64,000 bases of DNA from Flavobacteriales bacterium (GTDB lineage: Bacteria; Bacteroidota; Bacteroidia; Flavobacteriales; Flavobacteriaceae): the NCBI GenBank assembly GCA_027023475.1, contig JALVVJ010000019.1:1459-65458 (forward strand). Direction: 5' to 3'. Each line of letters opens with the position of its first letter. The first letter of the stretch is position 1. The position numbers were made by a program, and so were the translations under genes. The notes under the pieces are model-generated. The model worked only from the letters and a program-made list of their open reading frames with translations, did not search any database and was not told the DNA's origin. Shown here piece after piece: positions 3,601-62,905 of this stretch.

Positions 3601-3756
3601 GCCCCCGGCGAGCGACGTTTGTGGGCTTCCACGGGCGTATCGCTACGCATCAACCTGTTCGGACAAATCATCCTGCAACCCTACCTGAGCACCCCGCTCA
3701 CGCTCAAAGGTTACCGCAAATGGTCGTTCGGATTCAGTTTCTATCCCGGATTTTGA
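667..3756 (+). CDS. Large outer-membrane protein: N-terminal HExxH (MA-clan-like) domain, PD40/TolB-type propeller repeats, C-terminal beta-barrel
   Basis: Track ORF 640..3756, started here at ATG 667 (MRIIKLVLPVLLAGWFASSRAQ, signal-like). It carries HELVH plus a downstream MIEGMAEY. Five PD40-type repeats are present (SPDGKKMVF, SPDGKRFAF, SPGGKSILL, SPDGKHIAF, APDGQSIYF). The aromatic-rich C-terminal third ends ...FYPGF, as in OM barrels. Confidence 0.8.
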   Translation: MRIIKLVLPVLLAGWFASSRAQGFGFGQNKPIYEDFKFKVYRTEHFALYSYLENDTLRKRFLHDAESWYYKHHLLFRTDTLERPIPVILYNNHAQFQQTTAISGQIGVGTGGVTEGLKTRVVLPLRPSYGQTKHVLGHELVHAFQYNHIKTSPYLSFQHLANMPLWMIEGMAEYLSLGRVDAHTAMWMRDAVRGGFFPRYKDMYKPKYFPYRYGQNFWAFFGGTFGDDQIVRLFDATLLQGPDKAMDSLYGMRIDTFFVRWKTANEQYYRQFLPGRDTTVRGTVLFNGKNSGRINIAPALSPDGKKMVFLSEKQVISLDLYLADLETGKTKIIGSHSINNHIDAIDAYESAGTWSPDGKRFAFVVFKKGRNQLALVDVARHKIIRTLKIDGLASFSNPAWSPGGKSILLLGQKNGQTDLFLYFPGTGRLQQITNDPYAELTPSWSPDGKHIAFATDYYYYKRDQYPMHYHLGILDLTTGQKSYPGVFPGADNLNPVYAPDGQSIYFLSDRDGFRDIYQYDLDDGKVYQLTKYFTGVSGITKFSPALCVNYRTGELIYNYFFDHGYQIVKARPSQLLHEPVKLSDVHHEASLLPPDVRIQRAMALIRKGVLPKYGLVDAMLRTRIDSLDMKVTTEKYKPHFKLDFISNSGFGMTTSIYGTGFQGGVNMIFSDMLGRNTLSAAVSLNGEIYDFAAMALYFNQGKKRQIGVYASHIPYTSFGQGYDFETVDGQVYYIQKLYILHMFEDKVGAFRLFPFSRTQRLEGGLSLSRYYFRIDSHNYYYPFDTVSQSIYPYAVHYERHKEPSPDGFTLGEVNAAYVGDNSVFGMTAPMKGMRYRVGLQRYLGHLNFYTGTVDFRDYVYVKPFTFAFRLMHLNRFGKGVADNDILYPFFITYDYFIRGYSYGVLSEYVNTTPGAALTLNDLMGNKLLVTNFEVRLPFTGPERLAAIKSGFLFSDLSWFVDAGWVWDNGQKPVLRYTGAPGERRLWASTGVSLRINLFGQIILQPYLSTPLTLKGYRKWSFGFSFYPGF

Positions 3757-3769
3757 TTTAGTTGTTCAG

Positions 3770-4389
3770 GCGTTCCGGGAACCTGCGGCTTCCTTAGGCC
3801 TGGCTATATGCCGCGCCTTGTTTCCCTTCACGGCTCCCGACATTGCTATGCAATGTGCGGGACAAGTTCCACAATCCCTCGGGGCGCCGGCGGCGGAATG
3901 AAAATTCCGCTGCCGGCGGCGCAAATGATATCGGGGCGGCGAGTTTTAATCTGAGAAACCCGGTAAAATACCACCTCGACCGTAGAATTCCTCCTTTGTT
4001 TTGCGCCGCCCGGCCCCGCGCCTTCGGCGCGGGGCCGGCGCCCCTTGTCTTGTTCCGCGGCTTCGCGAACCGCCTTGTGGCGTTTCGCTTCGCGGGCCTC
4101 GGAACCCTTCGGTTTCCTCGGCGGCTCCGGGAACCTGCGGCTTCCAATGACCAACGCCACAGGCCGCACCTTGTTTCCCTTCGCACCTTCGGGAGCCGGC
4201 GCGTTCCGCCTTCGGCTCCACGCTTGTCTCCCTACGGGCTCCACAAGCCGGCGCTTCGCCTGCGGCTTCGCTTGTCTTGTTCCGCAGCTACGGCAGCCAC
4301 CTACGGTGTCTGCCTTCGCCACCGCGTCAGCCCTGCGGTCTGCCGCGGGCTCCGCGAGCCCTCCGGTCTCGCTCCGCTACAATTTTTTT
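3770..4389 (+). repeat. Family-B GC-rich composite repeat, copy B1
   Basis: Aligns along its length with B6 (52005..52585) and the reverse complement of B5 (45176..45772). Hairpin 1 is at 3883..3922 and hairpin 2 at 4010..4038, followed by a tail of degenerate CTTGTCTCCCT / GCTTCGC / CCTGCGG units. Boundaries are approximate. Confidence 0.85.
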
Positions 4390-4440
4390 CGGAATGAGAA
4401 CACCGATTAACGATTAATCGATTTAAGATTTCCGAATTTT

Positions 4441-4788
4441 TCAAATCGCTAATCGATGTTCAAATGTTAGGTGTTCATTATTCGAGCGCCGGTCCCTGAG
4501 TGATTTTTGCGTAGCAAAAATTGTATCGAAGGGACGGCGCGCAACAAGCGCCAGGGATGGGAGCGGTTATGAGCCGAAGGGCTGCCCGAGCATTTTCCCG
4601 CAGGCGGAGGCCGACAGCGTGAGGCCCCACGCACCGCGGTGGCGCGAAGCGCCTAAATGCCGGTGCAGCCCGAGGTGAATTTGAGCGGACAGCCCGGTTC
4701 CCGCCTCGTGAACACGTCGCAGGACAAACAACGTGCAGGCCTGCGGCTGTGTGAACGAGTGCGGGAAGGCGCCCAAATAAAAAACACG
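4441..4788 (+). repeat. Family-A GC-rich structured repeat, copy A1 (core 4548..4788, extended left arm shared with A3)
   Basis: Core begins GCGCCAGGGATGGGAGCGGTTATG and ends GGCGCCCAAATAAAAAACAC. Two GTGAAC boxes bracket the hairpin 4716-4723/4740-4747. The left arm AAATCGCTAATCG...ATTCGAG-hairpin also occurs next to A3. Confidence 0.85.
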
Positions 4789-4815
4789 GTCTATAACCAC
4801 AACTTTGAAAACAAC

Positions 4816-5598
4816 TTACACGCCACCGTCCAACTCCATCAAAATGGGCGCATGGTCGGAATGCAAGGCATCGCGTAAAATCACATGACGCCGCACAGCC
4901 GGACGCAAATCCACCGTGGCCAAATGATAATCGATGCGCCAACCCTTGTTGCGTGCGCGTGCGCCTGCACGATACGACCACCAGGTGTATTGTTCGGGCC
5001 GCGGGTCGAAAAGCCGGAACGTGTCGTCGAATCCCAAATCCATAAAGGCCGAAAGCCATTCCCGCTCCTCGGGCAGAAAACCCGAAACGTTCCTAAGCCG
5101 CACAGGGTCGTGGATGTCGATGGGCTTATGACAAATATTATAATCGCCGCTCACAATCAGACGCGGCATGTGCCGGAGTAAATCCGACATATAGTTATAG
5201 AAAGCGTCCATGTAGCGGAATTTTATGCGCAAACGTTCGTCGTTGGTTCCGCTGGGCACATAAACGCTCATTACCGAAAAACCGTTGAAATCGGCACGTA
5301 TATTCCGGCCTTCGTCGTCCATAAAACCGATGCCGGTGCCGTATTCCACATGCAAGGGCTCGATTTTACTCAAAATGCCCGTTCCGCTGTATCCTTTGCG
5401 CTTGGCCGGGAACCAATACTGATACCGGAAACCCGCCTTGCGCAATGCTTCGGTATCGATCTGATCCTCCATGGCCTTGATTTCTTGCAAGCAAACAACG
5501 TCGGGACTCACCGTCGAAAGCCAAGGAATTAAACCCTTGCGCATGGCGGCACGGATGCCGTTTACGTTGTAGGACAATAAGCGGACGGGCTTGCACAT
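4816..5598 (-). CDS. xth: Exodeoxyribonuclease III
   Basis: Track ORF 4816..5601 starts at a GTG. The ATG at 5598 overlaps the rseP stop (TGATG). LLSYNVNGIRAA, QEIK and C-terminal SDHAPI are typical of the ExoIII/Xth family. Confidence 0.9.
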   Translation of the reverse strand: MCKPVRLLSYNVNGIRAAMRKGLIPWLSTVSPDVVCLQEIKAMEDQIDTEALRKAGFRYQYWFPAKRKGYSGTGILSKIEPLHVEYGTGIGFMDDEGRNIRADFNGFSVMSVYVPSGTNDERLRIKFRYMDAFYNYMSDLLRHMPRLIVSGDYNICHKPIDIHDPVRLRNVSGFLPEEREWLSAFMDLGFDDTFRLFDPRPEQYTWWSYRAGARARNKGWRIDYHLATVDLRPAVRRHVILRDALHSDHAPILMELDGGV

Positions 5599-6959
5599 CA
5601 CTTGCCGAACAAACGTATCAAATCATTGCCGTTGGCATAAAGAATCACCGCCAACAGGATAAAAAATCCCACCAATTGGGCTTTTTCCAGGAATTTGTCG
5701 CTGGGCTTGTGGCCGGTTATCATTTCGTAAACGGTAAACATGGCATGCCCGCCGTCCAAGGCCGGAATGGGTAACACATTTATCACGGCCAACATGATGG
5801 ACAAAAAAGCCGTTATTTCCCAAAAGGCCAACCAATCCCAGGTTGTGGGAAATATTTTGGCAATGGACACAAACCCACCCAAACCTTTATAGGCCCCGGT
5901 GGAAGGAGTGAAAATCATTTTGATTTGGTCGATATAACCCGTAAGCGTTTTCCACATCCGTTGAAAGCCCTTGCCAATGGATTGGAAAAATCCGTAACGA
6001 TGATATTCCACGCGTAAGAAACCTTGTTTTTGTAAGGTTTCCATATCGGGTGCGGCGAGCATAACGCCCAATTTTCCTTCTTCGCTTATGTGCACATTCC
6101 GGGTCAAGGTATCGCCGTCGCGCACAATTTGAATCTCTACATCCGTGCCGGGATGGGCTTCCAGGTAGTCGATCACTTGGTCCATGTATTTGACGGGCTG
6201 TCCGGCTATGGCTACAACACGGTCGCCCTTGCGCAAATCCACGCCGGCATTGGGCGATTGCTTGGCCATTTTGTTTATCATGAAAGGCAACCGCAGGTTG
6301 ATAAGCCCTTTCTTTTGTTTGCTTTCGATAAGTTGGTTAATCAAATCTCCGGGCATATTGATTTGCAAGGTGTCGCCTCCGCGCACTACGGTAACCTGTT
6401 TGGCGGCGAGCAACGGAACATTAGGTGAATCCACCAAATCGCCCAAATAATATACCGGCTTGCCGTCCAAAGCAATAATGTGATCACCGGTGCGGAAGCC
6501 CGCTTCTTTGAGCACCTGACTTTGCACCCATATACCATCGGGCAGACTGTTCAAGGGAACACGTTTTTCGCCCCAGGTAAAGGCAATCATGATGTAGATA
6601 AAAATGGCCAACAAAATATTGACAATAATGCCACCCAACATGATCAACAAACGCTGCCAAGCGGGTTTGCTACGAAATTCCCAGGGCTTGGGTTCGGAAT
6701 TCAAAAATTCCTTGTCCATACTTTCGTCTATCATGCCGGCAATTTTGACATAACCCCCCAGCGGCAGCCAACCGATTCCGTATTCGGTTTCACCGATTTT
6801 CTTTTTGAAAAGCGAAAATTTGGGATTAAAAAACAAATAAAATTTTTCAACTTTGGTCTTAAACAGTTTGGCCATCAAAAAGTGCCCCGCCTCGTGCAAA
6901 ACCACCAATAGGGAAATGCTGAGCAGGAACTGTGCAGCCACGATAATTGCTTCCTTCAT
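5598..6959 (-). CDS. rseP: RIP metalloprotease RseP (site-2 protease)
   Basis: HEAGHF (HExxH) in the first TM segment, a PDZ-like middle region, and NVLPIPALDGGH near the C-terminus. Confidence 0.9.
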   Translation of the reverse strand: MKEAIIVAAQFLLSISLLVVLHEAGHFLMAKLFKTKVEKFYLFFNPKFSLFKKKIGETEYGIGWLPLGGYVKIAGMIDESMDKEFLNSEPKPWEFRSKPAWQRLLIMLGGIIVNILLAIFIYIMIAFTWGEKRVPLNSLPDGIWVQSQVLKEAGFRTGDHIIALDGKPVYYLGDLVDSPNVPLLAAKQVTVVRGGDTLQINMPGDLINQLIESKQKKGLINLRLPFMINKMAKQSPNAGVDLRKGDRVVAIAGQPVKYMDQVIDYLEAHPGTDVEIQIVRDGDTLTRNVHISEEGKLGVMLAAPDMETLQKQGFLRVEYHRYGFFQSIGKGFQRMWKTLTGYIDQIKMIFTPSTGAYKGLGGFVSIAKIFPTTWDWLAFWEITAFLSIMLAVINVLPIPALDGGHAMFTVYEMITGHKPSDKFLEKAQLVGFFILLAVILYANGNDLIRLFGK

Positions 6960-14389: not shown

Positions 14390-14512
14390 ACCTGCATTTT
14401 ACGGCCCTAAAATACAACTTTCGCCTCGAATAAATCCGCCAAAGGTCAATTTTTGGTGGATGTTCCGAAAACCTGTGGGCACCCTGAAAATCAGAATAAA
14501 CAACCGCCCGAA

Positions 14513-27007: not shown

Positions 27008-27250
27008 TTTTTTTTGGGCGTGTCCCTCGCGCCCTTCGGGCGCTCGGGAAACCGGCCCTCCGCTACAATGGGAACGCCTTCGGGCTGCGCCCTCCGGCTC
27101 TCGGACGGGCGGTGTTTTTTGCGCGGGCTGCGTCTGCGACTTGCCCGCGCCCGCCCGTGCGTGGGGCTTCCACAGGTCGCCTCCGCCGGGCGGAAAAAAC
27201 TACCACCGCCCTTCGCCCCATTACCGCTCGGTCCGGCACGCGGAAAAACT
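27008..27250 (-). repeat. Family-A repeat, divergent copy A2
   Basis: Its reverse complement contains the family core TTTTCCGCCCGGCGGAGGCGACCTGTGGAAGCCCCACGCACGGGCGGGCGCGGGCAAGTCGCAGACGCAGCCCGCGCAAAAAA and ends in an A run. Both flanking parts diverge from the other copies. Confidence 0.75.
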
Positions 27251-34154: not shown

Positions 34155-34484
34155 CCCGGTGTTTTTTTGTTTTGGGCGCCTGCCCGCACCCGTTCACACA
34201 GCCGCAGGCCTGCACGTTGTTTGTCCTGCGACGTGTTCACGGGCCGGCCACCGGGCTGTCCGCTTAAATTCGCCTTGGCTGCTCGCTGCTTTTGCGCGGG
34301 CGCGCGTGCCACGCGCCCGCGCCCGCCCGTGCGTGGGGCTTCCTGCCGGTCGCCTCCGCAGGGCGGAAAAGCATGCTCGCCGCCTACGGCTCATAACCGC
34401 TCCCATCCCTGGCGCGTTGGCTCGGGCGGCAAGCCGCCCTCGAATCAAGAACATCGAACAGATGATTAACGATTGGCGATTTGT
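34155..34484 (-). repeat. Family-A repeat, copy A3 (core 34155..34416 plus the extended arm shared with A1)
   Basis: The reverse complement starts CGCGCCAGGGATGGGAGCGGTTATG and ends GGCGCCCAAAACAAAAAAACAC. Its variable hairpin is identical to A1 and its central hairpin is lengthened. Confidence 0.85.
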
Positions 34485-34734
34485 CCTCTCCTAGTGAAAA
34501 TATTGAAGCAGGATGTCATTTCGAAGGAGTTCCCGAAGGGAACGACTGAGAAATCTCTACACGGGCAATTCATACAAGGGGGAATTCTACGTTCCTATTG
34601 TCCAATCCGCGAAGAGATTCCTTCCCGACCTTCGGTGCGGGACAGGCTGGCGTTTTACCTTGTTGTCGCCCGGCAATATTTTGTCGGAATGACATCACTC
34701 TCCTATTGTAAACATTGATGCAAGTCTGTCATTC
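34484..34734. repeat. Family-C inverted-pair repeat, locus C3
   Basis: Left unit 34515..34564 (GTCATTTCGA...GAGAAATCTCTACACGG) and inverted right unit 34607..34693 (...GAGATTCC...GTCGGAATGAC). Flanking direct repeats are of the TCCTATTGTAAACATTGA type. Confidence 0.8.
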
Positions 34735-38366: not shown

Positions 38367-38411
38367 GGGACATATTGGGGACATATTTTGGACATATCTT
38401 GGACAGATTTT
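38367..38411. repeat. Four tandem degenerate 11-13 nt units (GGGGACATATT / GGGGACATATTTT / GGACATATCTT / GGACAGATTTT)
   Basis: Read directly from the sequence. It lies between the M23 peptidase start (38288) and the tRNA-Gln terminator. Confidence 0.8.
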
Positions 38412-38437
38412 GACGAATTAATTCATAACTGCCTGAT

Positions 38438-38478: not shown

Positions 38479-38507
38479 AATAAATACGGTAGCGGAGCGA
38501 TAAGTTG

Positions 38508-38578
38508 TAGACCCGCCAGGATTCGAACCTGGACAAGCAGAACCAAAATCTGCGGTGCTGCCGTTACACCACGGGTCT
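38508..38578 (-). tRNA. tRNA-Gln (anticodon TTG)
   Basis: The 71-nt minus-strand sequence AGACCCG...CGGGTCTA folds as a cloverleaf by hand: a 7-bp acceptor, anticodon stem GCAGA/TCTGC with loop TTTTGGT (anticodon TTG), and T arm CCAGG-TTCGAAT-CCTGG. CCA is not encoded. Confidence 0.9.
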
Positions 38579-38600: not shown

Positions 38601-38706
38601 TGAAATATTTTTCGGGAAAAACAAAGGGGGATTTTCGGATTTAGAAGGCGGTTGATGCTAAGGACGGCCATTGCTACGATTGTTCAAATGGTTAGCAAAA
38701 AAAAAT

Positions 38707-38958
38707 CGCGCCAGGGATGGGAGCGGTTATGCGGAGACGTCGGCGAGCATGCTTTTCCGCCCGGTGGAGGCTGACAGTGGGAAGCCCTACGCACGGGCGG
38801 GCGCGGGCAAGCCGCAGGCGCAGCCCGCGCAAAAAGCAGCGAGCCGACAAGCCGCATTTGAGCGGACAGCCCGGTCCCGCCTCGTGAACGCGTCGCCGGA
38901 TGAGCCACAGGCGAAAGCCGGCGGCAGTCGTGAACGAGTGCGGGAGGCGCCCTAAAAA
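38707..38958 (+). repeat. Family-A repeat, copy A4
   Basis: Runs from CGCGCCAGGGATGGGAGCGGTTATG to GTGAACGAGTGCGGGAGGCGCCCTAAAAATC. Central hairpin at 38801..38830 and variable hairpin at 38892-38899/38918-38925. Confidence 0.9.
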
Positions 38959-39005
38959 TCTTTTCCACGATTTGTCGTAATTTTACGCATTCGACCACTT
39001 ATGGT

Positions 39006-44608: not shown

Positions 44609-44867
44609 GTTTTTTGGGCGCCCCGCCGCACACGTTCACGCATCGGCGGTTGCTTCAAGGCGACGGAGCGCTTTCGCACCCGCCGCGTTCACGTGGCGCC
44701 GTCGGGCTGTCCGCTCAAATGCGGCTTGCCGGCTCGCTGCTTTTTGCGCGGGCTGCGCCTGCGCTTGCCCGCGCCCGCCCGTGCGTGGGGCTTCCTTCGG
44801 TCGCCTCCGCCGGACGGAAAAGCATCCTCGCCGCCTTCACCGCATAACCGCTCCCATCCCTGGCGCG
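44609..44867 (-). repeat. Family-A repeat, copy A5
   Basis: The reverse complement runs from CGCGCCAGGGATGGGAGCGGTTATGCGG to GTGAACGTGTGCGGCGGGGCGCCCAAAAAACA. Its variable hairpin has a CGGCGG/CCGCCG stem. Confidence 0.9.
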
Positions 44868-44968
44868 ATAATAAGGTGCGCGCGATAAATCGCTTTTCCC
44901 GCGCGATAAATCGCGCGGCTACAATGATACATCCGGCCTTGGTTGAAGCGTTCGGGTTTATGATTAAT

Positions 44969-45175
44969 GTCCTACTGTAAACATTGAAGGCAAATGTCAT
45001 TCCGACAGAGCCGCGTAGCGGCGACGAGGAATCTCTACACGGATACTCCATTCGGGGCGGAATATTAGATTCCTATTGTCTAATCCGTGATGAGATTCCT
45101 CGGCGTTTTACCTCGCTTACGCTCGGCAAAACTTTGTCGGAATGACATCGATCTCCTATTGCAAACATTGAAGGC
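44969..45175. repeat. Family-C inverted-pair repeat, locus C5
   Basis: Left unit 44996..45042 (GTCATTCCGACAGAGCCGCGTAGCGGCGACGAGGAATCTCTACACGG) and inverted right unit 45085..45146. TCCTAYTGYAAACATTGAAGG direct repeats sit at both ends. Confidence 0.85.
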
Positions 45176-45772
45176 GAAACCGAACAGCGGGTTCGCCGCT
45201 TCCCGAGGAGACCAAAGGGCTCCGAGGGCCGCAAGGAGACACCGCAGGTGGCTCCGAAGCACACGGAGCAAGACCGGAGGCGAAGCGAAGCGGCGCCGGA
45301 AGGGCTTGCGGAGTTGCGAAGGGAGACAAGCGCGAAGCCGCAGGCGGAGCGTGCCGGCTCCCTGAGCCGCGAAGGCAGACCGCAGGGCTGCCGGAGTGCC
45401 GGAGGGAGACAAAGCGCGGGCTTGGCATCAGCCGCTTGGCAGCCGAAGGATCCCGGAGGGCGGAACAAGACAAGGGGCGCCGGCCCGCGCCAAAGGCGCG
45501 GGCCGGGCGGCGCAAAAAAACGGTGGATTTTATTCGCTAAACCCAAAACAAATCATCGATGGCCGCAACAATCCATTTTCCGGAATAAGTTTTGCGCCGC
45601 CGGCAGCGGAATTTCATTCCGCCGCCGGCGCCCTGACGGCTTGTGGAGCCGTGGAGCAAGACCCGCAGGGGCTTGCGGAACCGCATAACTTGTCCCGTAT
45701 ATTGCCTGGCAATGTCAGGGAAACAAGGCGCAGCCCTTGGCGTAGGCCTATGGAAGCCGTATGTTCCCGAAG
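45176..45772 (-). repeat. Family-B repeat, copy B5
   Basis: The reverse complement aligns with B1 from TTCGGGAACATACGGCTTCC through hairpin 1 (45594..45632) and hairpin 2 (45480..45506) to the CTTGTCTCC/GCTTCGC tail. Confidence 0.85.
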
Positions 45773-45889
45773 CAAGTCAAAATTTAGTGGTTTTTAACGG
45801 AAAAATCATTGATCAGTCGAGTTGTCCTTCCGTCGTATTTAACTTTGGCAAGATTTTTGCTTCGGTTTTACAAAACCCAAGGATTAACC

Positions 45890-46243
45890 ATGCGCGACGA
45901 TCATGTTTTTACTACGCAAAAAAGTAAAGAAGCAACCGATTTTGATGCGAAACAAAAATTGATGCAACAAAGTTGGCGTTTGCAAAGTATTTACGAAACG
46001 GGATTGGTGCCCGATGTGGCCCGATACCGGGATGTGGAAGTGGTTTTCGGGCCGATGCATATTTATGCCCTCTATGGCAGCCGGGCCGAACGGTTTTCCT
46101 ATCGTTTCCTGTCGCCGCGCGTGTTTGAAGTGGTGATCAACAACATTCCCTTCCGCTGCCGCATCAGCCGCTTGACCGACACCGAACTCCGTTTCCACGC
46201 CGATGCACCCGAACATCATTTTATCATCGAAATGCGCCGGTAA
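45890..46243 (+). CDS. Hypothetical protein
   Basis: The track ORF starts at TTG 45809. ATG 45890 (MRDDHVFTT...) is preferred. No recognised motifs. The 3' end overlaps the convergent neighbour by 28 nt. Confidence 0.45.
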   Translation: MRDDHVFTTQKSKEATDFDAKQKLMQQSWRLQSIYETGLVPDVARYRDVEVVFGPMHIYALYGSRAERFSYRFLSPRVFEVVINNIPFRCRISRLTDTELRFHADAPEHHFIIEMRR

Positions 46244-47160
46244 TCGCGGTAAAGGGGCAGCGTGGAGCAACGCAACAAACCTTCTTGTTTGGCAATTTCA
46301 CGATAACCGATTTCCTCAACGGTCAGCCCTTGCCGGCGAAGCCAAGTGTTTAACCGACTGAAATGCCGGTCGGAAACCACGACCTCGGGCGATATGGAAA
46401 ATACATTGGCCGTCATATCATACATTTCTTCCTTTGTGATATGAAAAAGATTTTCCCGGCCGAACAAATCGCGTAGGAAGTCGTATTGTTCCGGCACCAG
46501 AAAACCCTCGCGGTGAATGATGGCCTTGCCTTTGCCCACGGGTTGAAATACGCAATCCAAGTGCAGGGCGTTTTCATAGGGGTCGGCGTTGGATTTTTTC
46601 AGGTCGAAAGCCACCACTTTTTTGTGCGGGAACAATTGCTGCAACCATTCCACGGCGGCGGCATTGGTGCGCGCAGTGATCATTTTAGGATAATCTGGGC
46701 GGCGATAGGCGCCTACGAAAATATAATCATACCACGGCATCACATCACCACCTTCGACATGCACCGTTTCGGGCGGAATAATAATATTCCCCGGATCGAT
46801 ACTGCGGGCGATTTCCAAAATGGCGTTTACTTCACACTCGCGCGCCGGTAAAATATTGGAACGGATAAATTTATTTTCGATTACAAAACCCACATCGCGG
46901 GCAAATATTTGATTGGTATTTTCCAAGGGCTTGGGCCGGAAAACCCTGACACCGTATTTTTCCAAAACCTCACGGAAAGATTCCATTTCGCGCACCATAT
47001 CTTCCTCGCGCGGATAGGTGCCTTTGAGCACATTTTCCAAGGACTTGGGGTCGTAACAATCTTCGGGCTCGGGAACGGGACCGGGGCTATCGGCGCGGCC
47101 CAGAATAACGGCGCGCAGGGGTGAAATTTCATCAATTACATAAAACCGGTCGATTTCCAT
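46216..47160 (-). CDS. Amidinotransferase / arginine deiminase-superfamily (DDAH-like) protein
   Basis: Trimmed to ATG 47160 (MEIDRFYVIDE...). The C-terminal GLLRCSTLPL (catalytic Cys context) and HLDCVF are typical of the guanidino-group-modifying enzyme fold. Confidence 0.7.
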   Translation of the reverse strand: MEIDRFYVIDEISPLRAVILGRADSPGPVPEPEDCYDPKSLENVLKGTYPREEDMVREMESFREVLEKYGVRVFRPKPLENTNQIFARDVGFVIENKFIRSNILPARECEVNAILEIARSIDPGNIIIPPETVHVEGGDVMPWYDYIFVGAYRRPDYPKMITARTNAAAVEWLQQLFPHKKVVAFDLKKSNADPYENALHLDCVFQPVGKGKAIIHREGFLVPEQYDFLRDLFGRENLFHITKEEMYDMTANVFSISPEVVVSDRHFSRLNTWLRRQGLTVEEIGYREIAKQEGLLRCSTLPLYRDYRRISMIK

Positions 47161-47202
47161 ACAATTGTGGGTTTGGCCTAAAAATACATAAAGCTTTCGG
47201 AA

Positions 47203-47244
47203 CAAAAAAAACGAAAAGCCCGTTCCAAAAGAAACGAGCTTTTC
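47203..47244 (-). terminator. Intrinsic terminator after gltA
   Basis: Minus strand reads GAAAAGCTCGTT-loop-AACGGGCTTTTC (11 of 12 bp) followed by GTTTTTTTTG. Confidence 0.6.
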
Positions 47245-47264
47245 AAATAAACCCAATGCGTAAA

Positions 47265-48557
47265 TTATTTTCTGTTTTCCATGGGAACATAATGCCGTTG
47301 AGCAGGACCTACATACAATTGACGCGGCCTTCCGATAGGTTCGTTGTTTTCGCGCATTTCTTTCCATTGGGCTATCCACCCGGGAAGGCGCCCCATGGCA
47401 AACATCACGGTGAACATTTCTACCGGAATACCCAGCGCGCGGTAGATTATGCCGCTGTAAAAGTCCACATTCGGATAAAGTTTTCGCGCTTGGAAATATT
47501 CGTCGTTCAGTGCGGCTTGTTCCAGTTCTTTGGCAATATCCAACAAGGGATCGTCCACGCCTAATTCGGCCAACACTTCATCGGCGGATTTTTTGATAAT
47601 GCGGGCCCGCGGGTCGAAGTTTTTATACACCCTGTGCCCGAAGCCCATCAGCCGGAACGGGTCGTTTTTGTCCTTGGCCTTGTCGATGTATTTGCGCACA
47701 TTGCCGCCGTCGGCACGGATTTGTTCCAACATTTCAAGAACGGCTTGGTTGGCGCCGCCATGCAGCGGACCCCAAAGGGCCGAAACACCCCCGGATATGG
47801 AAGCATACAAACCCGCATGCGACGAACCTATGAGCCGCACGGTGGATGTAGAACAGTTTTGTTCGTGGTCGGCGTGAAGAATCAAAAGTTTGTCCAAGGC
47901 CCGGGCTGCCACCGGATTCACTTTGTAGGGTTCCATGGGCTTTTCGAACATCATTTTCAGGATGTTTTCCACGTAGCTGAGCCGGCTGTCGGCATAGGTA
48001 AGCGGCCAGCCGTTGCGCTTGCGCATGGCCCAGGCACCCAGAATGGGGAATTTGCCCAAAGTGCGAACAATGGTGTTGTAAAGCACTTCTTTGTTGGAAA
48101 TATCTTTAACATCACGATAAAAAGCCGTCATGGCGCCGGTGAGCGACGACAATATACCCATGGGGTGGGCCGAGCGCGGAAATCCGTCGATGATGTTTTT
48201 CATTTCTTCGTTCACAAAGGATTTATCCTTGACGTCGGCCACGAACTTATCAAAAGTTGTTTTGTCGGGCAATTCGCCGTAAATGAGCAGGTAAGCCACT
48301 TCCAAAAAAGTGGATTTCTCGGCCAGTTCTTCGATCGGATAACCGCGATAGCGTAAAATACCCGCCTCGCCGTTGAGGTAGGTGATTTTACTCCGGGTGG
48401 AAGCGGTGTTTTTATAACCGGGGTCCACGGTTACAACGCCACCGGTGGAAGCCCGCAATGTTTTAATGTCAATAGCCCGGTCGCCTTCGGTTCCGGTTTC
48501 CACCGGAAGTTCCACTTCCAGGTTGTTGATTTTCAGATATGCTGTATCGGTTGTCAT
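47265..48557 (-). CDS. gltA: Citrate synthase
   Basis: GFGHRVYKNFDPRA and HADHEQNCSTSTVR are citrate synthase signatures. 430 aa. Confidence 0.95.
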   Translation of the reverse strand: MTTDTAYLKINNLEVELPVETGTEGDRAIDIKTLRASTGGVVTVDPGYKNTASTRSKITYLNGEAGILRYRGYPIEELAEKSTFLEVAYLLIYGELPDKTTFDKFVADVKDKSFVNEEMKNIIDGFPRSAHPMGILSSLTGAMTAFYRDVKDISNKEVLYNTIVRTLGKFPILGAWAMRKRNGWPLTYADSRLSYVENILKMMFEKPMEPYKVNPVAARALDKLLILHADHEQNCSTSTVRLIGSSHAGLYASISGGVSALWGPLHGGANQAVLEMLEQIRADGGNVRKYIDKAKDKNDPFRLMGFGHRVYKNFDPRARIIKKSADEVLAELGVDDPLLDIAKELEQAALNDEYFQARKLYPNVDFYSGIIYRALGIPVEMFTVMFAMGRLPGWIAQWKEMRENNEPIGRPRQLYVGPAQRHYVPMENRK

Positions 48558-48576
48558 AATATTGATTTATTTATGG

Positions 48577-48849
48577 TTATCGAATAATTTCAAAACTTTT
48601 GTAGCCCTTTGGCCCGGTGCGCCGGAAGTCCACACGTTCAACGCGTGAAAGCGGCGAACCCTGATGAAGCCAATCTTTGAAAATCCGTATTTGCTCTTCG
48701 GGGCCTTCGGCTTCCACATACACGCTGCCGTCGGGCTCATTCCGCACAATACCGGTCAAACCTAACCGGTCGGCCTGCATTTTAGTGTGTTTACGGAACC
48801 ATACGCCTTGCACCTTGCCGTAAACACGCGCTTCGATGGCTTCGGTCAT
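48577..48849 (-). CDS. acyP: Acylphosphatase
   Basis: Trimmed to ATG 48849. VYGKVQGVWFRKHT matches the acylphosphatase signature. 90 aa. Confidence 0.85.
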   Translation of the reverse strand: MTEAIEARVYGKVQGVWFRKHTKMQADRLGLTGIVRNEPDGSVYVEAEGPEEQIRIFKDWLHQGSPLSRVERVDFRRTGPKGYKSFEIIR

Positions 48850-49015
48850 ATACGCTCGGAGTTTTGCATATAAATTTATTTCAAAATCCGCTACTTCCGA
48901 CTGACAAAAAGCAGTTTTTGCGTTGTTTTTGTAATAATTATCACCAAAAACATCCGAAAAATGTGGCACAAAGCGTCTGCATAGGGAGCACATTGGAAAA
49001 TAGCGCGGTAAATCC

Positions 49016-49023
49016 TATATTTG
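49016..49023 (+). promoter_or_regulatory. Candidate -7 promoter box (TATATTTG) for secDF
   Basis: A perfect TAnnTTTG 25 nt upstream of ATG 49049. The track TTG start at 49028 is only 4 nt after the box, which argues for the ATG. Confidence 0.45.
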
Positions 49024-49048
49024 CGCATTGTTTGAAAAAATAAGAATA

Positions 49049-51946
49049 ATGCAAGGAAAAGGACTTGTTAAAACGTTTGCCATTCTGTTGGCATTGTTGA
49101 GTATCTATCAATTATCGTTTACCATTGTAGGGCAAAACATCAAGCAAAAGGCACGCGAATATGCCCAAGGAGATCCGGTTAAAGAAAAACGTTATCTGGA
49201 CTCGGTCAATAAAATTCCGGTGTATAACCTGCTGGGGATGCACTTTACCTATGAAGAAATCAAGAAGCGGGAGATGAAATTGGGTTTGGATTTGCAAGGA
49301 GGTATCAATGTCATTTTGCAAATTTCCATTCGCGACATTCTCAAAGATTTGGCCAATCATACGCACGACCCCGATTTTAACCGCGCACTTAAAATGGCCG
49401 CCGAAGCCCAAAAATCCAGTGATAAACCTTTCTTGGATTTGTTTTTCGAAGCTTGGGATAAAATTGCCAAAGAGACCGGCAAACAACTGAGCGACCCGGC
49501 CATTTTCGGTAACAAAAAATTGGCCGGCGACATTGAACCGGGCATGCCCGACGAAGAAGTCAAAAAAGTCATCCGCCAAAAGGTGGATGAAGCCATGACC
49601 AGTGCCTTTGAAGTGCTGCGTAAGCGTATCGACAAATTCGGGGTAACATCGCCCAATATTCAACGCTTGGGTACCAGTGGCCGCATCCTGGTGGAACTGC
49701 CCGGCGCCAAAGATGCCGAACGTATAAAAAAACTTCTGCAAAGCACGGCGCAATTGGAATTTTGGCCCGGCTATAAGCAGGAAGAATATGCCGGCTATAT
49801 CCAACAGGTGGATCAAATTATTTCACGCAAATACAGTATTCAACCCAAAGACAGCACACAAGCACCTCAAATCGTTTCGCTTTCGGCCCTCAAACGTCAA
49901 GCCGGATATGGCCCGGTGGTAGGTTATTTTGCTATCAAAGACACCGCCAAAGTAAATCAATTCCTCCGCGATCCGGAAGTGGTTAAAGCCCGTCCCGAAA
50001 ATCTGCGTTTTGCTCAGTTCCTTTGGGGCAAACGCGACGCCGACAAAGACATTATTCCGCTATATATCGTCCACGGCAATGCCGACCATATTCCGCCGCT
50101 AAGTGGTAGTGTGATAACCGACGCCCGTCAAACTTTCGACCAGTTCAGTAAACCTGCCGTGTCGATGGATATGAATTCCAAAGGAGCCAAAATCTGGGAA
50201 AAACTTACCACCGATGCCTATAAAAACGGCTCCACCATCGCCATTGTGCTGGACAAAGTGGTTTATTCGGCCCCCACGGTAAGCAACGGCCCTATCACCG
50301 GCGGACGTTCGCAAATCTATGGTAAGTTTACCGTCGAAGAAGCCAAGGACTTGGCCAACGTGTTGCGTGCCGGTAAGTTGCCTGCCAAAGCCGATATTGT
50401 TCAATCCGAAATTGTAGGACCCACCCTTGGCCGTGAAGCCATTCACCAAAGTAAAATCGCCTTTGCTTTTGCCCTGCTCCTTGTGATTTTGTGGATGATT
50501 TTCTACTACGGCCGTGCAGGTGTGGTAGCCGGTGTGGTGTTGCTGGTCAACCTGTTGTTTGTGTTCGGTGTTTTGGCCAGTTTGAAACTGGTGCTCACCC
50601 TGCCCGGTATTGCCGGTATCGTGCTGACCATTGGTATGGCGGTGGACGCCAATGTGCTTATCTATGAGCGGATACGCGAAGAACTAAGGGCGGGCAAAAA
50701 TATGCGGGCCGCTATCGCCGACGGATACAGCAACGCTCTTTCCTCCATTTTGGATGCCAACATCACCACCTTGATTACGGGCTTTATCCTCTTTGTGTTC
50801 GGAACCGGACCCATTCAAGGTTTCGCCACCACCCTGATTATCGGTATCGTGGCCTCCTTGTTTACGGCCATCCTGCTTTCGCGTCTGTTTATCGAGTGGT
50901 GGATGAACAAGGGTAAGAAAATGACTTTCTCCACCAAGGTAACCGAAAATTGGTTGGTGGATGTTAAGTTCGACTTTATCGGTAAACGCAAAATCGCTTA
51001 TTTGGTTTCGGGCTCTTTGATTGCCATCGGGTTGATTTCCATCTTTACCCAGGGACTTAACCCGGGTGTGGACTTTGTGGGCGGACGAACCTTTACGGTG
51101 CGCTTCCCGCAAGCCATGAACAGCAACGAAGTGGCCAATGCCTTGGGTGAAGTGTTTGTGGTAAACGGACATAAAATTAAGCCCGAAGTCAAAACCTTCG
51201 GAGCGCCCAACCAACTGAAAATTACCACCAAATACAAAATCGACCAAAGTGGTGAGGAAGTGGACCAGGAAGTGGAACAAAAACTCTACGAAGGGCTCAA
51301 ACCCTTCCTGCCCAAAGGTATGACCTTCGACCAATTTATCAGCACCAAAGGCGAAAAACAATACGGAATGATGCAATCCATCAAAGTGGGTCCCACTATT
51401 GCCGACGACATTAAAAAAGGCGCCGTTTGGGCTGTGATATTCTCGCTCTTGGCCATCTTCATCTACATTTTGGTGCGTTTCAAATACTGGGAATTCAGTG
51501 TGGGCGCCATTGTGGCCTTGGTTCACGACGTGCTCTTTACGCTGGGCGTGTTTTCGCTCACCTACAAGATTATGCCTTTCGATATGGAAGTGGACCAGGC
51601 CTTTATTGCCGCCATCCTGACCGTAATCGGTTATTCGCTAAACGACACGGTGGTCATCTTCGACCGTGTGCGGGAATTTTTCAAGATCCACCTCTCGTGG
51701 ACGCCGGAAAAACTGATCAACCGGGCTCTGGGTTCCACGCTTTCGCGAACCTTGAACACATCGTTTACCACCTTCCTGGTGTTGTTGGTGGAATTCATCT
51801 TTGGCGGCGACAGCATCCGCGGCTTTATTTTCGCCTTGATGGTGGGTGTGATTGTGGGAACTTATTCGTCGCTGTTTGTGGCCACACCCGTGATGTATGA
51901 TTTAATGAAGAAACGTTTCGACAAGGTGTTGAAACGAAAAAAATAA
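49049..51946 (+). CDS. secDF: Protein translocase subunit SecDF (fused)
   Basis: About 965 aa with an N-terminal TM, a large periplasmic domain, and two six-TM-type SecD and SecF halves (LGLDLQGG, GVDFVGGRTF motifs). Confidence 0.95.
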   Translation: MQGKGLVKTFAILLALLSIYQLSFTIVGQNIKQKAREYAQGDPVKEKRYLDSVNKIPVYNLLGMHFTYEEIKKREMKLGLDLQGGINVILQISIRDILKDLANHTHDPDFNRALKMAAEAQKSSDKPFLDLFFEAWDKIAKETGKQLSDPAIFGNKKLAGDIEPGMPDEEVKKVIRQKVDEAMTSAFEVLRKRIDKFGVTSPNIQRLGTSGRILVELPGAKDAERIKKLLQSTAQLEFWPGYKQEEYAGYIQQVDQIISRKYSIQPKDSTQAPQIVSLSALKRQAGYGPVVGYFAIKDTAKVNQFLRDPEVVKARPENLRFAQFLWGKRDADKDIIPLYIVHGNADHIPPLSGSVITDARQTFDQFSKPAVSMDMNSKGAKIWEKLTTDAYKNGSTIAIVLDKVVYSAPTVSNGPITGGRSQIYGKFTVEEAKDLANVLRAGKLPAKADIVQSEIVGPTLGREAIHQSKIAFAFALLLVILWMIFYYGRAGVVAGVVLLVNLLFVFGVLASLKLVLTLPGIAGIVLTIGMAVDANVLIYERIREELRAGKNMRAAIADGYSNALSSILDANITTLITGFILFVFGTGPIQGFATTLIIGIVASLFTAILLSRLFIEWWMNKGKKMTFSTKVTENWLVDVKFDFIGKRKIAYLVSGSLIAIGLISIFTQGLNPGVDFVGGRTFTVRFPQAMNSNEVANALGEVFVVNGHKIKPEVKTFGAPNQLKITTKYKIDQSGEEVDQEVEQKLYEGLKPFLPKGMTFDQFISTKGEKQYGMMQSIKVGPTIADDIKKGAVWAVIFSLLAIFIYILVRFKYWEFSVGAIVALVHDVLFTLGVFSLTYKIMPFDMEVDQAFIAAILTVIGYSLNDTVVIFDRVREFFKIHLSWTPEKLINRALGSTLSRTLNTSFTTFLVLLVEFIFGGDSIRGFIFALMVGVIVGTYSSLFVATPVMYDLMKKRFDKVLKRKK

Positions 51947-51968
51947 CCGGATTTTAGTGCATAGTTTT

Positions 51969-51999
51969 AATCCCGGCCTTTGTGTGCCGGGATTTTTTT
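51969..51999 (+). terminator. Intrinsic terminator after secDF
   Basis: AATCCCGGC-CTTTGTGT-GCCGGGATT (9-bp stem) followed by TTTTTTA. Confidence 0.75.
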
Positions 52000-52004
52000 A
52001 TGAC

Positions 52005-52585
52005 GCTCCGGAACCGCTACGCGTTTCCTACGCGGCTCCGCAAGCCGTCAGGGCGCCGGCGGCGGAATGGAATTCCGCTGCCGGCGGCGCAAAATTTTGC
52101 GGCCATTGACAACAAATGATTTAAAGTTTCGACTACGCCATTCCCGGAAAACCCTGCCGGGATTTTGCGCCGCCGGCCCCGCGCGTGAGCGCGGGGCCAG
52201 CGCCCTTTGTCTTGCTACGCTGCTTCGGAAACCTCGTATGTTTGTAGCATGAAAAATTTTATAATTTTGTTCACATCCGATGCAAAAAGGAAAGAAGGTA
52301 AGAAATCTGGGAAACCTTGGTACGTACAAAACGATACCGTAGCGCAGAATGTATTCTTACCTTCTTTCTGCGCTTCCAAAGCCCAACGCCCGGGCCGCGC
52401 TTGTTTTCCTTCGCACCTCGGGGAACCCGCACGCTCCGCCTGCGACTCCGCGTTTGTCTCCCCTCGGGCTTCGCAAGCCCTTCCGGCTTCGCTTCGCTGT
52501 GCCGCAGGTCTTGCTTCGCGTGCTGCGGAGCCACACTGCCTCCCGACAAGTTCTGCTACGCCATGGCAGCGGTCTCCGCAGACAG
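52005..52585 (+). repeat. Family-B repeat, copy B6 (with a nested AT-rich insertion at about 52225..52372)
   Basis: Hairpin 1 at 52052..52090 and hairpin 2 at 52175..52198 (GTGA loop). The tail is of the CGCGTTTGTCTCCCCTCGGGCTTCGCAAGCCC... type and aligns with B1 and B5. Confidence 0.85.
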
Positions 52586-62000: not shown

Positions 62001-62241
62001 GGGCTATGATTTCCATGGTGTTGATAAACCGGATAATGAAAACGATACCTACGGCTTGCGTTATGCGGAGTTTGTTGTTCCCATGGTCAAAGCCATGCAA
62101 GAACAACAAAGAGAAATTGAACGTCAGCGGGCGGAAATCGAGGATTTGAAACGCAGGAATGCACGACTCGAAGAGTTGGTGAACCGGTTGCTAAGTCAAG
62201 ATCGTAATATCAGCCGAAGACAGGACAGCGAAGGTGGCTGA
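59014..62241 (+). CDS. Large repeat protein: conserved Bacteroidota N-terminal domain, ~40-50 x 17-aa NxAxGxxAL-type repeats, C-terminal tail-fibre intramolecular-chaperone (peptidase S74-like) domain
   Basis: Signal peptide [20 protein letters not shown] and N-terminal motif KGLLIPRMT...GLMIYQTD...GFYYYDG. The 17-aa period is visible as [17 protein letters not shown] / [17 protein letters not shown] and so on. The C-terminus reads [10 protein letters not shown]...LRPITYRLD...GFIAQEVEQ...YGLRYAEFV, followed by a coiled coil. Confidence 0.85.
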
Positions 62242-62366
62242 GTGATAGGAGCTCTACGAACAGTGTTTCAAAGGCGTTAGCCACCAAAGAGAAAGGAAAT
62301 TTTACATCCGGCCAACGGTTTAATTTTACTCGTACTTTGTATAATCACTCAGCATCCGGCAATCTC

Positions 62367-62791
62367 CGCGCCAGGGATGGGAGCGGTTATGCGGTGCTGG
62401 CGGCGAGCATGCTTTTCCGCCCGGAGGAGGCGACCGAAGGAAGCCCTACGCACGGGCGGGCGCGGGCAAGCGTAGGCGCAGCCCGCGCAAAAAGCAGCGA
62501 GCCGGCAAGCCGCATTCGAGCGGACAGCCCGGCGGCTGCCGCGTGAGGAACAGCCGGCGTGAGCGTGCTCCGTCATCGCGAAACGACGGCTGAGGCGCCG
62601 CCGCGGCGCGCAGCAGCGCGCCGGGCGGATGGCCGGACGTAAACGATTGTAAATCAGCGAAACGCCCCGGCCCCGCGGCGAAGCCGCGGGGCCGGGGCCG
62701 ACGATAAATCCGCTTCCGCGTCCGGCCATCCGCCGCGGGCTTCCGCCCGCCGGCGGCGCCCCGAACGCCGGCAGCCGGGCGCCCAAAAAAA
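62367..62791 (+). repeat. Family-A repeat, long variant A7
   Basis: The 5' two thirds are like A4/A5. The 3' part is replaced by a chain of GC hairpins: 62605..62622, a 16-bp inverted repeat at 62624-62639/62719-62734, and an enclosed 16-bp hairpin at 62664..62698. It ends GGGCGCCCAAAAAAA. Confidence 0.85.
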
Positions 62792-62905
62792 TTACCGGCA
62801 CCTATTCATCCCGACCACGTAAACATTACACCGGAAAATTTCATTCCCGGTAGACAATATGTTGTAAGGAAAGATATGTGCCGCATTTACACATCAAAAA
62901 AATTG

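Follow-up and report, generated by a model that had tools for sequence, protein, structure and literature searches.

Most of what is known of repeats of the repetitive extragenic palindromic (REP), REPIN and miniature inverted-repeat transposable element (MITE) types comes from Proteobacteria, with hardly any work on Bacteroidota. Bacterial MITEs such as Correia/NEMIS and ERIC are 100–200 bp long; they end in inverted repeats of about 26 bp or more, lie between short direct repeats, form hairpins once transcribed, and carry no transposase of their own. REP sequences are imperfect palindromes of 20–40 bp that lie outside genes in high copy number and have an unpaired, conserved GTAG or CGTC at one end; in systems with a REP-associated tyrosine transposase (RAYT), the repeats flank a single-copy gene for this Y1 (HUH) enzyme. 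REPINs, known from Pseudomonas and the enterobacteria, are doublets of REP sequences that form hairpins (PMC3116915, PMC3337134). Here we present family B, a GC-rich repeat in a 64-kb stretch of Flavobacteriales DNA (64,000 nt of contig JALVVJ010000019.1; the whole stretch is called the window below, and coordinates refer to it unless a collected locus, numbered L, is named). A preliminary description, made from the letters of the window alone, had listed three copies of about 600 nt, B1, B5 and B6, and had offered two explanations, a large structured RNA or a mosaic of REP units like the bacterial interspersed mosaic elements (BIMEs). We read family B, with a probability of about 0.6, as a non-coding, intergenic, lineage-specific REP/BIME-like mosaic with a MITE/REPIN-like core, and not as one unit of 600 nt. 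The mosaic half of the earlier suggestion is borne out: module content, number and order vary even between orthologues, the tail is an array of short palindromes, and the core is a separate unit of about 190 bp.

The core and its conservation

A profile of the core, searched against the window, gives exactly three matches, at 3870–4053 (plus strand), 45465–45646 (minus) and 52039–52214 (plus), with E-values of 1e-43 to 1e-46, far beyond chance, and the three copies lie at the positions and on the strands first given for them. They had been said to align over their whole length; the core, about 185 nt, is indeed collinear, but heads and tails are not (mean column identity 66%, long gaps). About 100 further copies were gathered from two Flavobacteriales metagenome-assembled genomes (MAGs) and two Joint Genome Institute (JGI) metagenome samples. 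The core consists of two inverted modules of 54 nt, each with a hairpin of its own, around an AT-rich centre; the left module is ACAAGCCGTCGGGGCGCCGGCG, the hairpin-1 tip and GCCGGCGGCGCAAAA, and the other is a near reverse complement carrying the hairpin-2 tip, the 18-nt hairpin tips being the only part in which the right module is not the reverse complement of the left. Terminal inverted repeats are present as RCAAG/CTTGY plus GGGGCGCCGGCG/CGCCGGCGCCCC. Both hairpins are as first drawn, hairpin 1 with a 15-bp stem that includes one G.T (CGCCGGCGGCGGAAT / ATTCCGCTGCCGGCG, 3885–3918 in B1) and hairpin 2 with a GC stem of 11–13 bp, and all three copies also have CCTTGTCTTG and the hairpin-rich tail. 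The parts of the core are as follows.

Left module: ACAAG CCGTC GGGGCGCCGGCG (GCGGAAT-loop-ATTCCGCT) GCCGGCGGCGCAAAA
Right module: TTTTGCGCCGCCGGC (CCCGCGC-loop-GCGCGG) CGCCGGCGCCCC TTGT CTTGT
Core ends: ACAAGCCGTCGGGGCGCCGGCGG and its complement
3871–4053, plus strand: core mini-element of B1, AT-rich centre at about 3927–3998
3871–3875 with 4049–4053, plus strand: helix P0 of B1, ACAAT/CTTGT
3881–3888 with 4037–4044, plus strand: helix P1 of B1, GGGGCGCC/GGCGCCCC
3885–3918 and 4010–4038, plus strand: hairpins 1 and 2 of B1
Plus strand: helix P3 of B1, GGCGGCGCAAA.../...TTTGCGCCGCC
45465–45646, minus strand: core of B5, hairpin 1 at 45594–45632 and hairpin 2 at about 45478–45511
52038–52215, plus strand: core of B6, hairpin 1 at 52052–52090 and hairpin 2 at about 52171–52204

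By prediction from single-sequence folds and RNAalifold, a core in single-stranded form can close into a four-way junction, whose four helices are P1, hairpin 1, P3, which encloses the centre, and hairpin 2; the closing helix P0 (RCAAG/CTTGY) lies outside it. Hairpin 1, G.T included, is invariant in 79/79 distinct cores and was itself the pattern by which copies were found, while P1, P3 and the stem of hairpin 2, all outside that pattern, are at least 95% conserved among the same 79, in which P0, P1 and P3 are paired in 97–98.5% of cells and hairpin 2 keeps a C.C mismatch in 58. The loops vary freely. Two copies have the hairpin-1 loop reverse-complemented (L007 6302–6334 and L027 2503–2536, TTTTC and TTTC where GAAAA and GAAA stand elsewhere) with the asymmetric G.T of the stem unflipped, which suggests loop flipping via intrastrand recombination or template switching. 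The sole variable positions of P0 and P1 covary (A-U 52, G-C 15, other 11 for one pair; G-C 50, A-U 12, G.U 4, other 13 for the second), with 30 double-change cells against 10±2.4 in shuffles (0/500), a kind of count that related copies inflate. Over the whole core the covariation term of RNAalifold is −0.04 and only 2 of 47 pairs have more than two double-change cells; since the stems are invariant, they offer no real test of covariation.

The centre behaves otherwise. The preliminary description had called it a variable spacer of 70–95 nt, and its sequence is indeed free, but its length is tight, 69–76 nt in nearly all of about 80 copies (72±3 nt), within a distance from P1 end to P1 end of 146–167 nt. 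Centres are 62–70% alike, where the shuffled null gives about 60%, and have no consensus structure. The most unusual feature of the family is this combination of about 120 nt of palindrome, invariant at all copies across species, with a neighbouring centre of fixed length and free sequence.

Outside the core, the three bases next to RCAAG and those next to CTTGY are identical in 57 of 77 copies (TCC 45, TTC 10, TGC 2) where 42±3.2 were expected (0/10,000), an excess that related copies, orthologues of several genomes included, inflate. The context of the core can be written GC-TNC-core-TNC-GC, and this pattern looks like a 3-bp target duplication inside the GCTYCGC linker that is plentiful in the arrays described below.

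Arrays, distribution and turnover

The tail units are imperfect hairpins of 17–25 nt, co-oriented and variable in number and order, and head and tail units have one design: a CTNC tag, a basal stem of 4–6 bp, C, two to four GC pairs, a loop of 3–4 nt, T, and the complementary stem. The tails of the first 55 copies hold 178 hairpins, and all copies together hold 154 distinct ones, all intergenic. The exact mismatch of 5′ C and 3′ T occurs in 120/156 imperfect tail hairpins; GC-rich hairpins of this C/T type lie on the element strand in 154 cases and on the other strand in 2, and 104/154 have the 5′ tag CTNC, the 5′ contexts being CTCC, CTTC, CCTC and CTGC. Basal stems vary yet stay complementary (GGAG/CTCC, GCGAG/CTCGC, GGCAG/CTGCC, GCGAA/TTCGC, GTGAA/TTCAC, GCAAG/CTTGC). 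In none of the 154 does GTAG or CGTC precede the hairpin, or CTAC or GACG follow it, and successive hairpins keep one orientation (154:2), where those of BIMEs alternate. Within the window, hairpins of the C/T type are confined to B1, B5 and B6, other matches being AT-rich and at background level. The arrays supply many GCTYCGC linkers, and among their units the larger "alpha" units (GGGAAC...GCCGCGCCTTGTTTCCC) resemble cores without their interior.

The GC-rich block measures between about 165 and about 755 nt from copy to copy, and the modules keep a constant order and a single orientation: head, hairpin 1, centre, hairpin 2 and tail units, then optionally modules E, C, D and A. The tails of B1, B5 and B6 have their unit types in common and differ in number and order of units, and B6 differs from B1 and B5 in the absence of their head unit and in an AT-rich insertion of about 135 nt (about 52238–52372). 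The parts around the three cores, with the neighbouring modules and one scar, are listed here.

3770–3868, plus strand: head of B1, one alpha-type unit at 3770–3830 (recurring at 4124–4180) and a 33-nt "mini" hairpin insertion at about 3836–3868
4054–4389, plus strand: tail of B1, co-oriented CTNC-tagged imperfect hairpins with the C/T mismatch and one alpha unit at 4124–4180
4065–4088, 4101–4117, 4292–4314 and 4354–4372, plus strand: example hairpins of the B1 tail
4478–4790, plus strand: family-A repeat following the B1 tail, its order and orientation relative to B being those found at B5
14456–14495, plus strand: scar of a lost B...A block between an epimerase gene and prfA, GTTCCGAAAACCTGTGGGC joined to ACCCTGAAAATC
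44681–45171, minus strand: modules 3′ of the B5 tail, C at 45026–45171, D at about 44870–44990, A at 44681–44869
45173–45464, minus strand: tail hairpin array of B5, with hairpins at 45374–45392, 45235–45255, 45207–45223 and 45173–45197
45647–45772, minus strand: head of B5, alpha unit, mini hairpin and one C/T hairpin at 45656–45676
52005–52037, plus strand: short head of B6, CGCTCCGG and one C/T hairpin at 52010–52028, preceded by a terminator-like hairpin at 51969–51994
52216–52585, plus strand: tail of B6, including the AT-rich insertion with its own inverted repeat of 16–17 bp (about 52288–52304 / 52355–52370)

Some C/T-mismatch tail hairpins (CCGGAGAGCCCGGCC ... GGCCGGTCTCTCCGG, in L007, L016, L021, L023 and L024) hold a variable AT-rich interior of 60–90 nt in place of the usual 3-nt loop. 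GC-rich stems around AT-rich cargo are a recurring design, seen in the core and in some tail hairpins, and the B6 tail has a different AT-rich insert (52238–52372). The left end, (G)GCGYTCCG, usually stands 0–10 nt after a run of T, often the tail of a terminator-like hairpin (window 51969–52004; L016, L017, L021, L043, L052), and the 60 nt upstream of B6 and L037, hairpin included, are about 70% alike despite different upstream genes. Either insertion favours sites after terminators, or the AT-rich leader is part of the element.

Copies were collected with the exact hairpin-1 pattern from 185,579 species representatives and from JGI metagenomes. Among the species representatives its 52 loci all fall in the MAGs JALWYR01 and WGAP01, both Flavobacteriales, and a further 45 loci come from the two JGI samples (Ga0256831 and Ga0256832), one of them 99.4% identical to window 45443–51914; plasmids, phages and IMG/VR gave no matches, and two more distant relatives, whose prfA protein is 82–86% identical, have no B-like element in 32 kb. 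With loci in so few MAGs and samples and none in the 32 kb of those relatives, the family is confined to a narrow clade. Many of the loci sit at contig ends.

Within that clade, many copies occupy orthologous intergenic sites in JALWYR and WGAP, where the flanking DNA is 82–88% identical. At these common sites hairpin 1 is 96–100% and hairpin 2 88–95% identical, and the centres are 64–65% identical, no better than random between-genome pairs and close to the value of about 60% given by shuffles; paralogues from the same genome are nearer to each centre (69–85%) than its orthologue is. Heads and tails of orthologues differ in module content, and the orthologue L022 has no tail. In recent paralogues of one genome (centres at least 85% identical), similarity ends about 25–35 nt 5′ of hairpin 1 and soon after hairpin 2, that is, at the ends of P0, from which we conclude that the core is the unit that is copied or converted and that heads and tails are a separate layer. 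B6 and L037 have cores 98% identical and different upstream genes. B1 and L024, orthologues with 97% identity in the flank, agree through the gamma unit except for the 33-nt mini hairpin, which is in B1 only and has TCC on both sides, and past the gamma unit their tails and downstream synteny diverge. Synteny between the window and its close relative breaks exactly at B, 3′ of B1 (3756–4816 against L024) and 5′ of B6 (51946–52040 against L037); breaks at B elements point to rearrangement via recombination between copies. Family B marks synteny breakpoints and also breaks short-read assemblies, many MAG contigs ending inside it.

A whole block can also be lost. At the prfA site a B core is present in JALWYR (L038) and WGAP (L004), the second of which also has a family-A element right next to prfA (L099); the L038 contig ends inside the repeat, and the right junction of the block was taken from WGAP. 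In the window and in L098 the site holds only GTTCCGAAAACCTGTGGGC joined to ACCCTGAAAATC, a junction of a degenerate head with the final bases of A (...GGGC joined to GCCCTAAAAATC). Judged from these junctions, the scar is best read as the loss of a whole B...A block between GGGCGCC repeats.

The modules that follow B tails are repeats in their own right, and the order B, then E, C or D, then A recurs in many loci. Family A, the second GC-rich family (window 4478–4790, 27110–27243, 34161–34420, 38705–38960, 44681–44869 and 62367–62790), starts GCGCCAGGGATGGGAGCGG and ends ...GGCGCCC(A/T)AAAA; in its long version of about 420 nt (62367–62790), GGATGGCCGGACG pairs over a long range with CGTCCGGCCATCC around a GC hairpin at 62664–62699. 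On the strand that is rich in pyrimidines in B, family A is rich in purines; it often lies 3′ of B in fixed orientation and also stands alone, and has no Rfam or Pfam match. Module C is MITE-like, about 125 nt long with inverted ends GTCATTCCGAC...GTCGGAATGAC (window 45026–45171 and 34548–34718), recurs 3′ of B tails at many loci, and has on either side a direct repeat, CCTTCAATGTTTRCARTAGGA, about 25 nt long (44967–44994, 45151–45178, 34698–34725). Module D is a pair of GCGATTTATCGCGCG palindromes. Module E, TGTC-ATTCCCGC-GAAA-GCGGGAAT-CCA, stands singly or paired after B tails (L011 at about 5090 and 5151; L018, L034, L039, L052 and others), is absent from the window, and fits the published CGTC-1 REP type, which is the dRS3 of Neisseria (PMC3733652).

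Competing explanations

We propose that the core is a non-autonomous mobile element, MITE-like or REPIN-like, which would be copied by an enzyme encoded elsewhere. Such an enzyme would recognise the terminal hairpin modules and not the centre, and recognition of the ends only would lead to several centre subfamilies with identical ends. Within a genome, copies would be homogenised or replaced by gene conversion with the identical modules of 45–54 nt as anchors, arrays would lengthen or shorten as similar hairpins recombine or slip, and whole blocks would be deleted between short GC-rich direct repeats. The terminal inverted repeats, the flanking direct repeat, the centre subfamilies with identical ends, the near-identical cores at non-orthologous sites and the restriction to one clade all argue for mobility. 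Anatomy, copy number, confinement to one clade, unequal conservation, turnover of modules and loss of a whole block are seen in the sequences themselves, while transposition, an origin of the flanking TNC by target-site duplication, the existence of the enzyme and effects on transcripts, if any, are inferred.

Several observations weigh against this proposal. No transposase lies near the repeats in the window, beside the collected copies or elsewhere in about 0.6 Mb around about 100 copies, and no neighbouring gene recurs; Y1 or RAYT genes were likewise not found in the 0.6 Mb, a weak negative obtained by tblastn with IS200 TnpA and E. coli RAYT queries, a screen for the HUH...Y motif, and Pfam on the candidates. 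The full-length autonomous element ending in these sequences, which the preliminary description had considered, was not found in the sequence examined. The only case of presence and absence, the prfA site, is the loss of a whole block and not a gain, and no clean pair of empty and filled sites was recovered for insertion of the core. The TNC flanks, whose counts are inflated as said, could simply belong to the repeated linker, and the constant polarity of the modules is unlike that of classical BIMEs. Finally, about 120 nt are near-perfectly conserved at every copy, and the window, an unbiased 64 kb, holds no decayed copies, which is unusual for purely selfish DNA; the lack of decayed cores points to rapid turnover, to selection at host level, or to gene conversion for which the identical modules are the anchors, and the near-perfect conservation may reflect a host-level function or gene conversion restricted to the hairpins.

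That conservation gives some room to a non-coding RNA, an explanation that we judge unlikely. The cores, with or without the array, would be genes for a structured RNA of about 190 nt with a four-way junction and a variable 72-nt arm, the G.U of hairpin 1 and the C.U mismatches would be features of RNA, hairpin 2 with UUGUCUUGUU would be a terminator, and the array could be a protein-binding or stabilising 3′ extension. The hairpins are intact in every copy although the centres have diverged, the fold is far more stable than those of shuffled sequences (z-scores of −7.6 in B1 and −4.2 in B5), RNAalifold recovers the closed four-helix junction, two long-range terminal pairs covary, the strand asymmetries are conserved (G.T 79/79, C/T hairpins 154:2), and hairpin 2 with its T-rich tract is weakly terminator-like by score. 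However, the fold of the opposite strand is no less stable (−315 against −295 kcal/mol), the invariant stems leave covariation without a real test and the centre has no consensus structure, and recognition of single-stranded DNA predicts the same asymmetries equally. The composition of heads and tails is unconserved even between orthologues. No conserved promoter was seen, and a sigma-70 promoter scan, which is unsuited to Bacteroidota, returned nothing. The orientation of copies is unrelated to genes: by a crude assignment based on open reading frames (ORFs), the upstream gene is co-directional at 49 and divergent at 37, and all four gene contexts occur. An Rfam check, which the preliminary description had called for, gave no match for family B at gathering or E-value thresholds (E up to 10). 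For the large structured RNA of about 600 nt that it had proposed we find no support, with no Rfam family, an architecture that is unconserved over 600 nt, only two covarying terminal pairs, and an orientation without relation to genes.

The strand asymmetries and the two covarying closing pairs together imply a form in RNA or single-stranded DNA, which sequence data do not distinguish. We give a slim chance to a functional single-stranded element with a four-way junction. The core of about 190 nt would then be either a new family of small RNAs whose 72-nt arm is free, or single-stranded DNA folded into a site at which a recombinase or HUH enzyme acts; more than 50 loci in each genome would be kept intact by purifying selection, and the co-oriented C.U-mismatch arrays would be a platform for binding or processing.

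It is very doubtful that families B and A mark the two ends, left and right respectively, of a single larger mobile element whose copies are internally deleted derivatives of an autonomous, gene-carrying parent. The order B, then E, C or D, then A does recur in the same relative orientation at B1, B5 and many loci, and the prfA block, present in WGAP and absent from the window, begins with the B core and ends together with A, with GGGCGCC at both edges. No copy has genes between B and A, however; between inverted B copies lie housekeeping genes (B5 and B6 in the window, and two copies in L042); B occurs without A (B6, L001, L008, L022) and A without B (27110, 34161, 38705, 62367); and recent paralogues have only the core in common.

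We attach equally little weight to DNA-level sites kept by the host in the manner of E. coli BIME/RIP. On that reading the AT-rich segment, fixed in length, would bind a nucleoid protein (IHF/HU or gyrase type) and be clamped between the two GC-rich palindromes, identity being maintained by purifying selection or GC-biased gene conversion and not by transposition. A centre fixed in length and free in sequence agrees with this, as do palindromes invariant at every copy across species, the many copies at orthologous sites, and centres nearer to same-genome paralogues than to orthologues, as gene conversion predicts. Read from the alignment, the centre also has a partly conserved motif, TTTGATGC, whose reverse strand, CATCAAAGCATTT, resembles the IHF core ATCAANNNNTT, but the match is weak and the consensus is that of E. 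coli. The narrow clade, with close relatives that lack the family, argues against an essential role in the host, and terminal inverted repeats, the flanking-repeat signature and the centre subfamilies better fit a replicating element.

The remaining candidates were rejected: a composite transposon, as the genes between B5 and B6 and between the two L042 copies are housekeeping genes (citrate synthase, SecDF, LpxB, methyltransferases); acquired spacers like those of CRISPR, because the centres are mutually homologous and fall into subfamilies; an inverton, with reverse-complement identity of centres at a median of 0.61 (maximum 0.71), equal to the shuffled null of 0.60 (maximum 0.72); and a plasmid, phage or viral origin, with no matches.

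Gene surroundings and comparison with known systems

The window comes from a member of the Bacteroidota and has an S15-Flavobacteria leader, genes for gliding motility and the type IX secretion system, and SecDF. Its G+C content is about 49%, and GC-rich islands coincide with repeats. B1, B5 and B6 are all intergenic and without a Pfam match: B1 is flanked by convergent genes, for a PD40/Omp85-type protein (end at 3756) and an exonuclease III-like protein (4816–5601, minus strand), B6 by the convergent genes for SecDF and a beta-helix protein of the type IX secretion system, and B5 by two minus-strand genes. That coding is unlikely had been recognised from the start and holds, with no Pfam match, indels that are not multiples of three, and GC-rich ORFs that match only each other. 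Spurious long ORFs cross the GC-rich repeats on both strands (for example 3843–4397, 4478–5059, 44689–45051 and 62349–62801 in the window) and in an all-against-all comparison make up the two largest "protein" clusters (43 and 40 loci). A coding role for them was rejected on the same absence of Pfam matches and on their clustering only among themselves; because they cluster as "protein families", they are a trap for automatic annotation.

The window holds other repeats as well. Four tandem copies of GGACATATTTT stand at 38368–38412, about 95 nt from a tRNA-Gln gene (38507–38578, minus strand), and are absent from the orthologous region of L008. Degenerate tandem repeats of 51 nt, or 17 codons (AATATTGC.TTGGG...), occur at 59743–59853 and 60712–61476 inside an ORF of 1075 amino acids (59014–62241), which probably encodes a repeat-containing surface protein.

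With respect to known systems, family B is like the REPINs (PMC3116915, PMC3337134) in having two inverted palindromic modules of REP type, a less conserved spacer of about 70 nt and a long hairpin, and in tens to hundreds of copies that are mostly inherited vertically and form within-genome sequence populations. It is unlike them in that its modules measure 54 nt instead of about 25 nt, each with its own hairpin of 11–15 bp, in having no GTAG tag, in a host that belongs to the Bacteroidota, in the lack of a RAYT in the roughly 0.6 Mb searched, and in a flanking 3-nt direct repeat that is not expected from Y1 transposition. With the BIME/RIP (RIB) elements of E. coli and the NIMEs of Neisseria (PMC2817692, PMC3733652) it has in common several repeat families clustered between genes in a fixed relative order, a conserved mismatch in short imperfect palindromes, and an AT-rich segment between inverted palindromes; unlike BIMEs, however, its hairpins point in one direction (154:2) where theirs alternate, and its tag is CTNC where theirs is GTAG/CGTC. 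Of all the modules, only the separate module E fits a published type, CGTC-1 / dRS3.

The core agrees with Correia/NEMIS and ERIC in size, terminal inverted repeats and flanking direct repeats. Unlike those MITEs, with which it has no sequence similarity, family B has much longer inverted repeats that are themselves palindromic, a flanking repeat of TNC instead of TA, and a position within arrays of a second hairpin family. If an enzyme that recognises the hairpins is found, the two would form a new element-enzyme pair, and if none exists, family B would be a clean case of concerted evolution of dispersed palindromes. In its working the family resembles REP/BIME, REPIN and MITE elements and is a member of none, having neither the GTAG/CGTC tag nor alternating orientation nor a demonstrated RAYT. 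What makes it unusual beside all of them is its very long, palindromic terminal modules, near-identical across species while the centre drifts to saturation, and its strictly co-oriented arrays of a second hairpin family with a fixed C/T mismatch and a CTNC tag.

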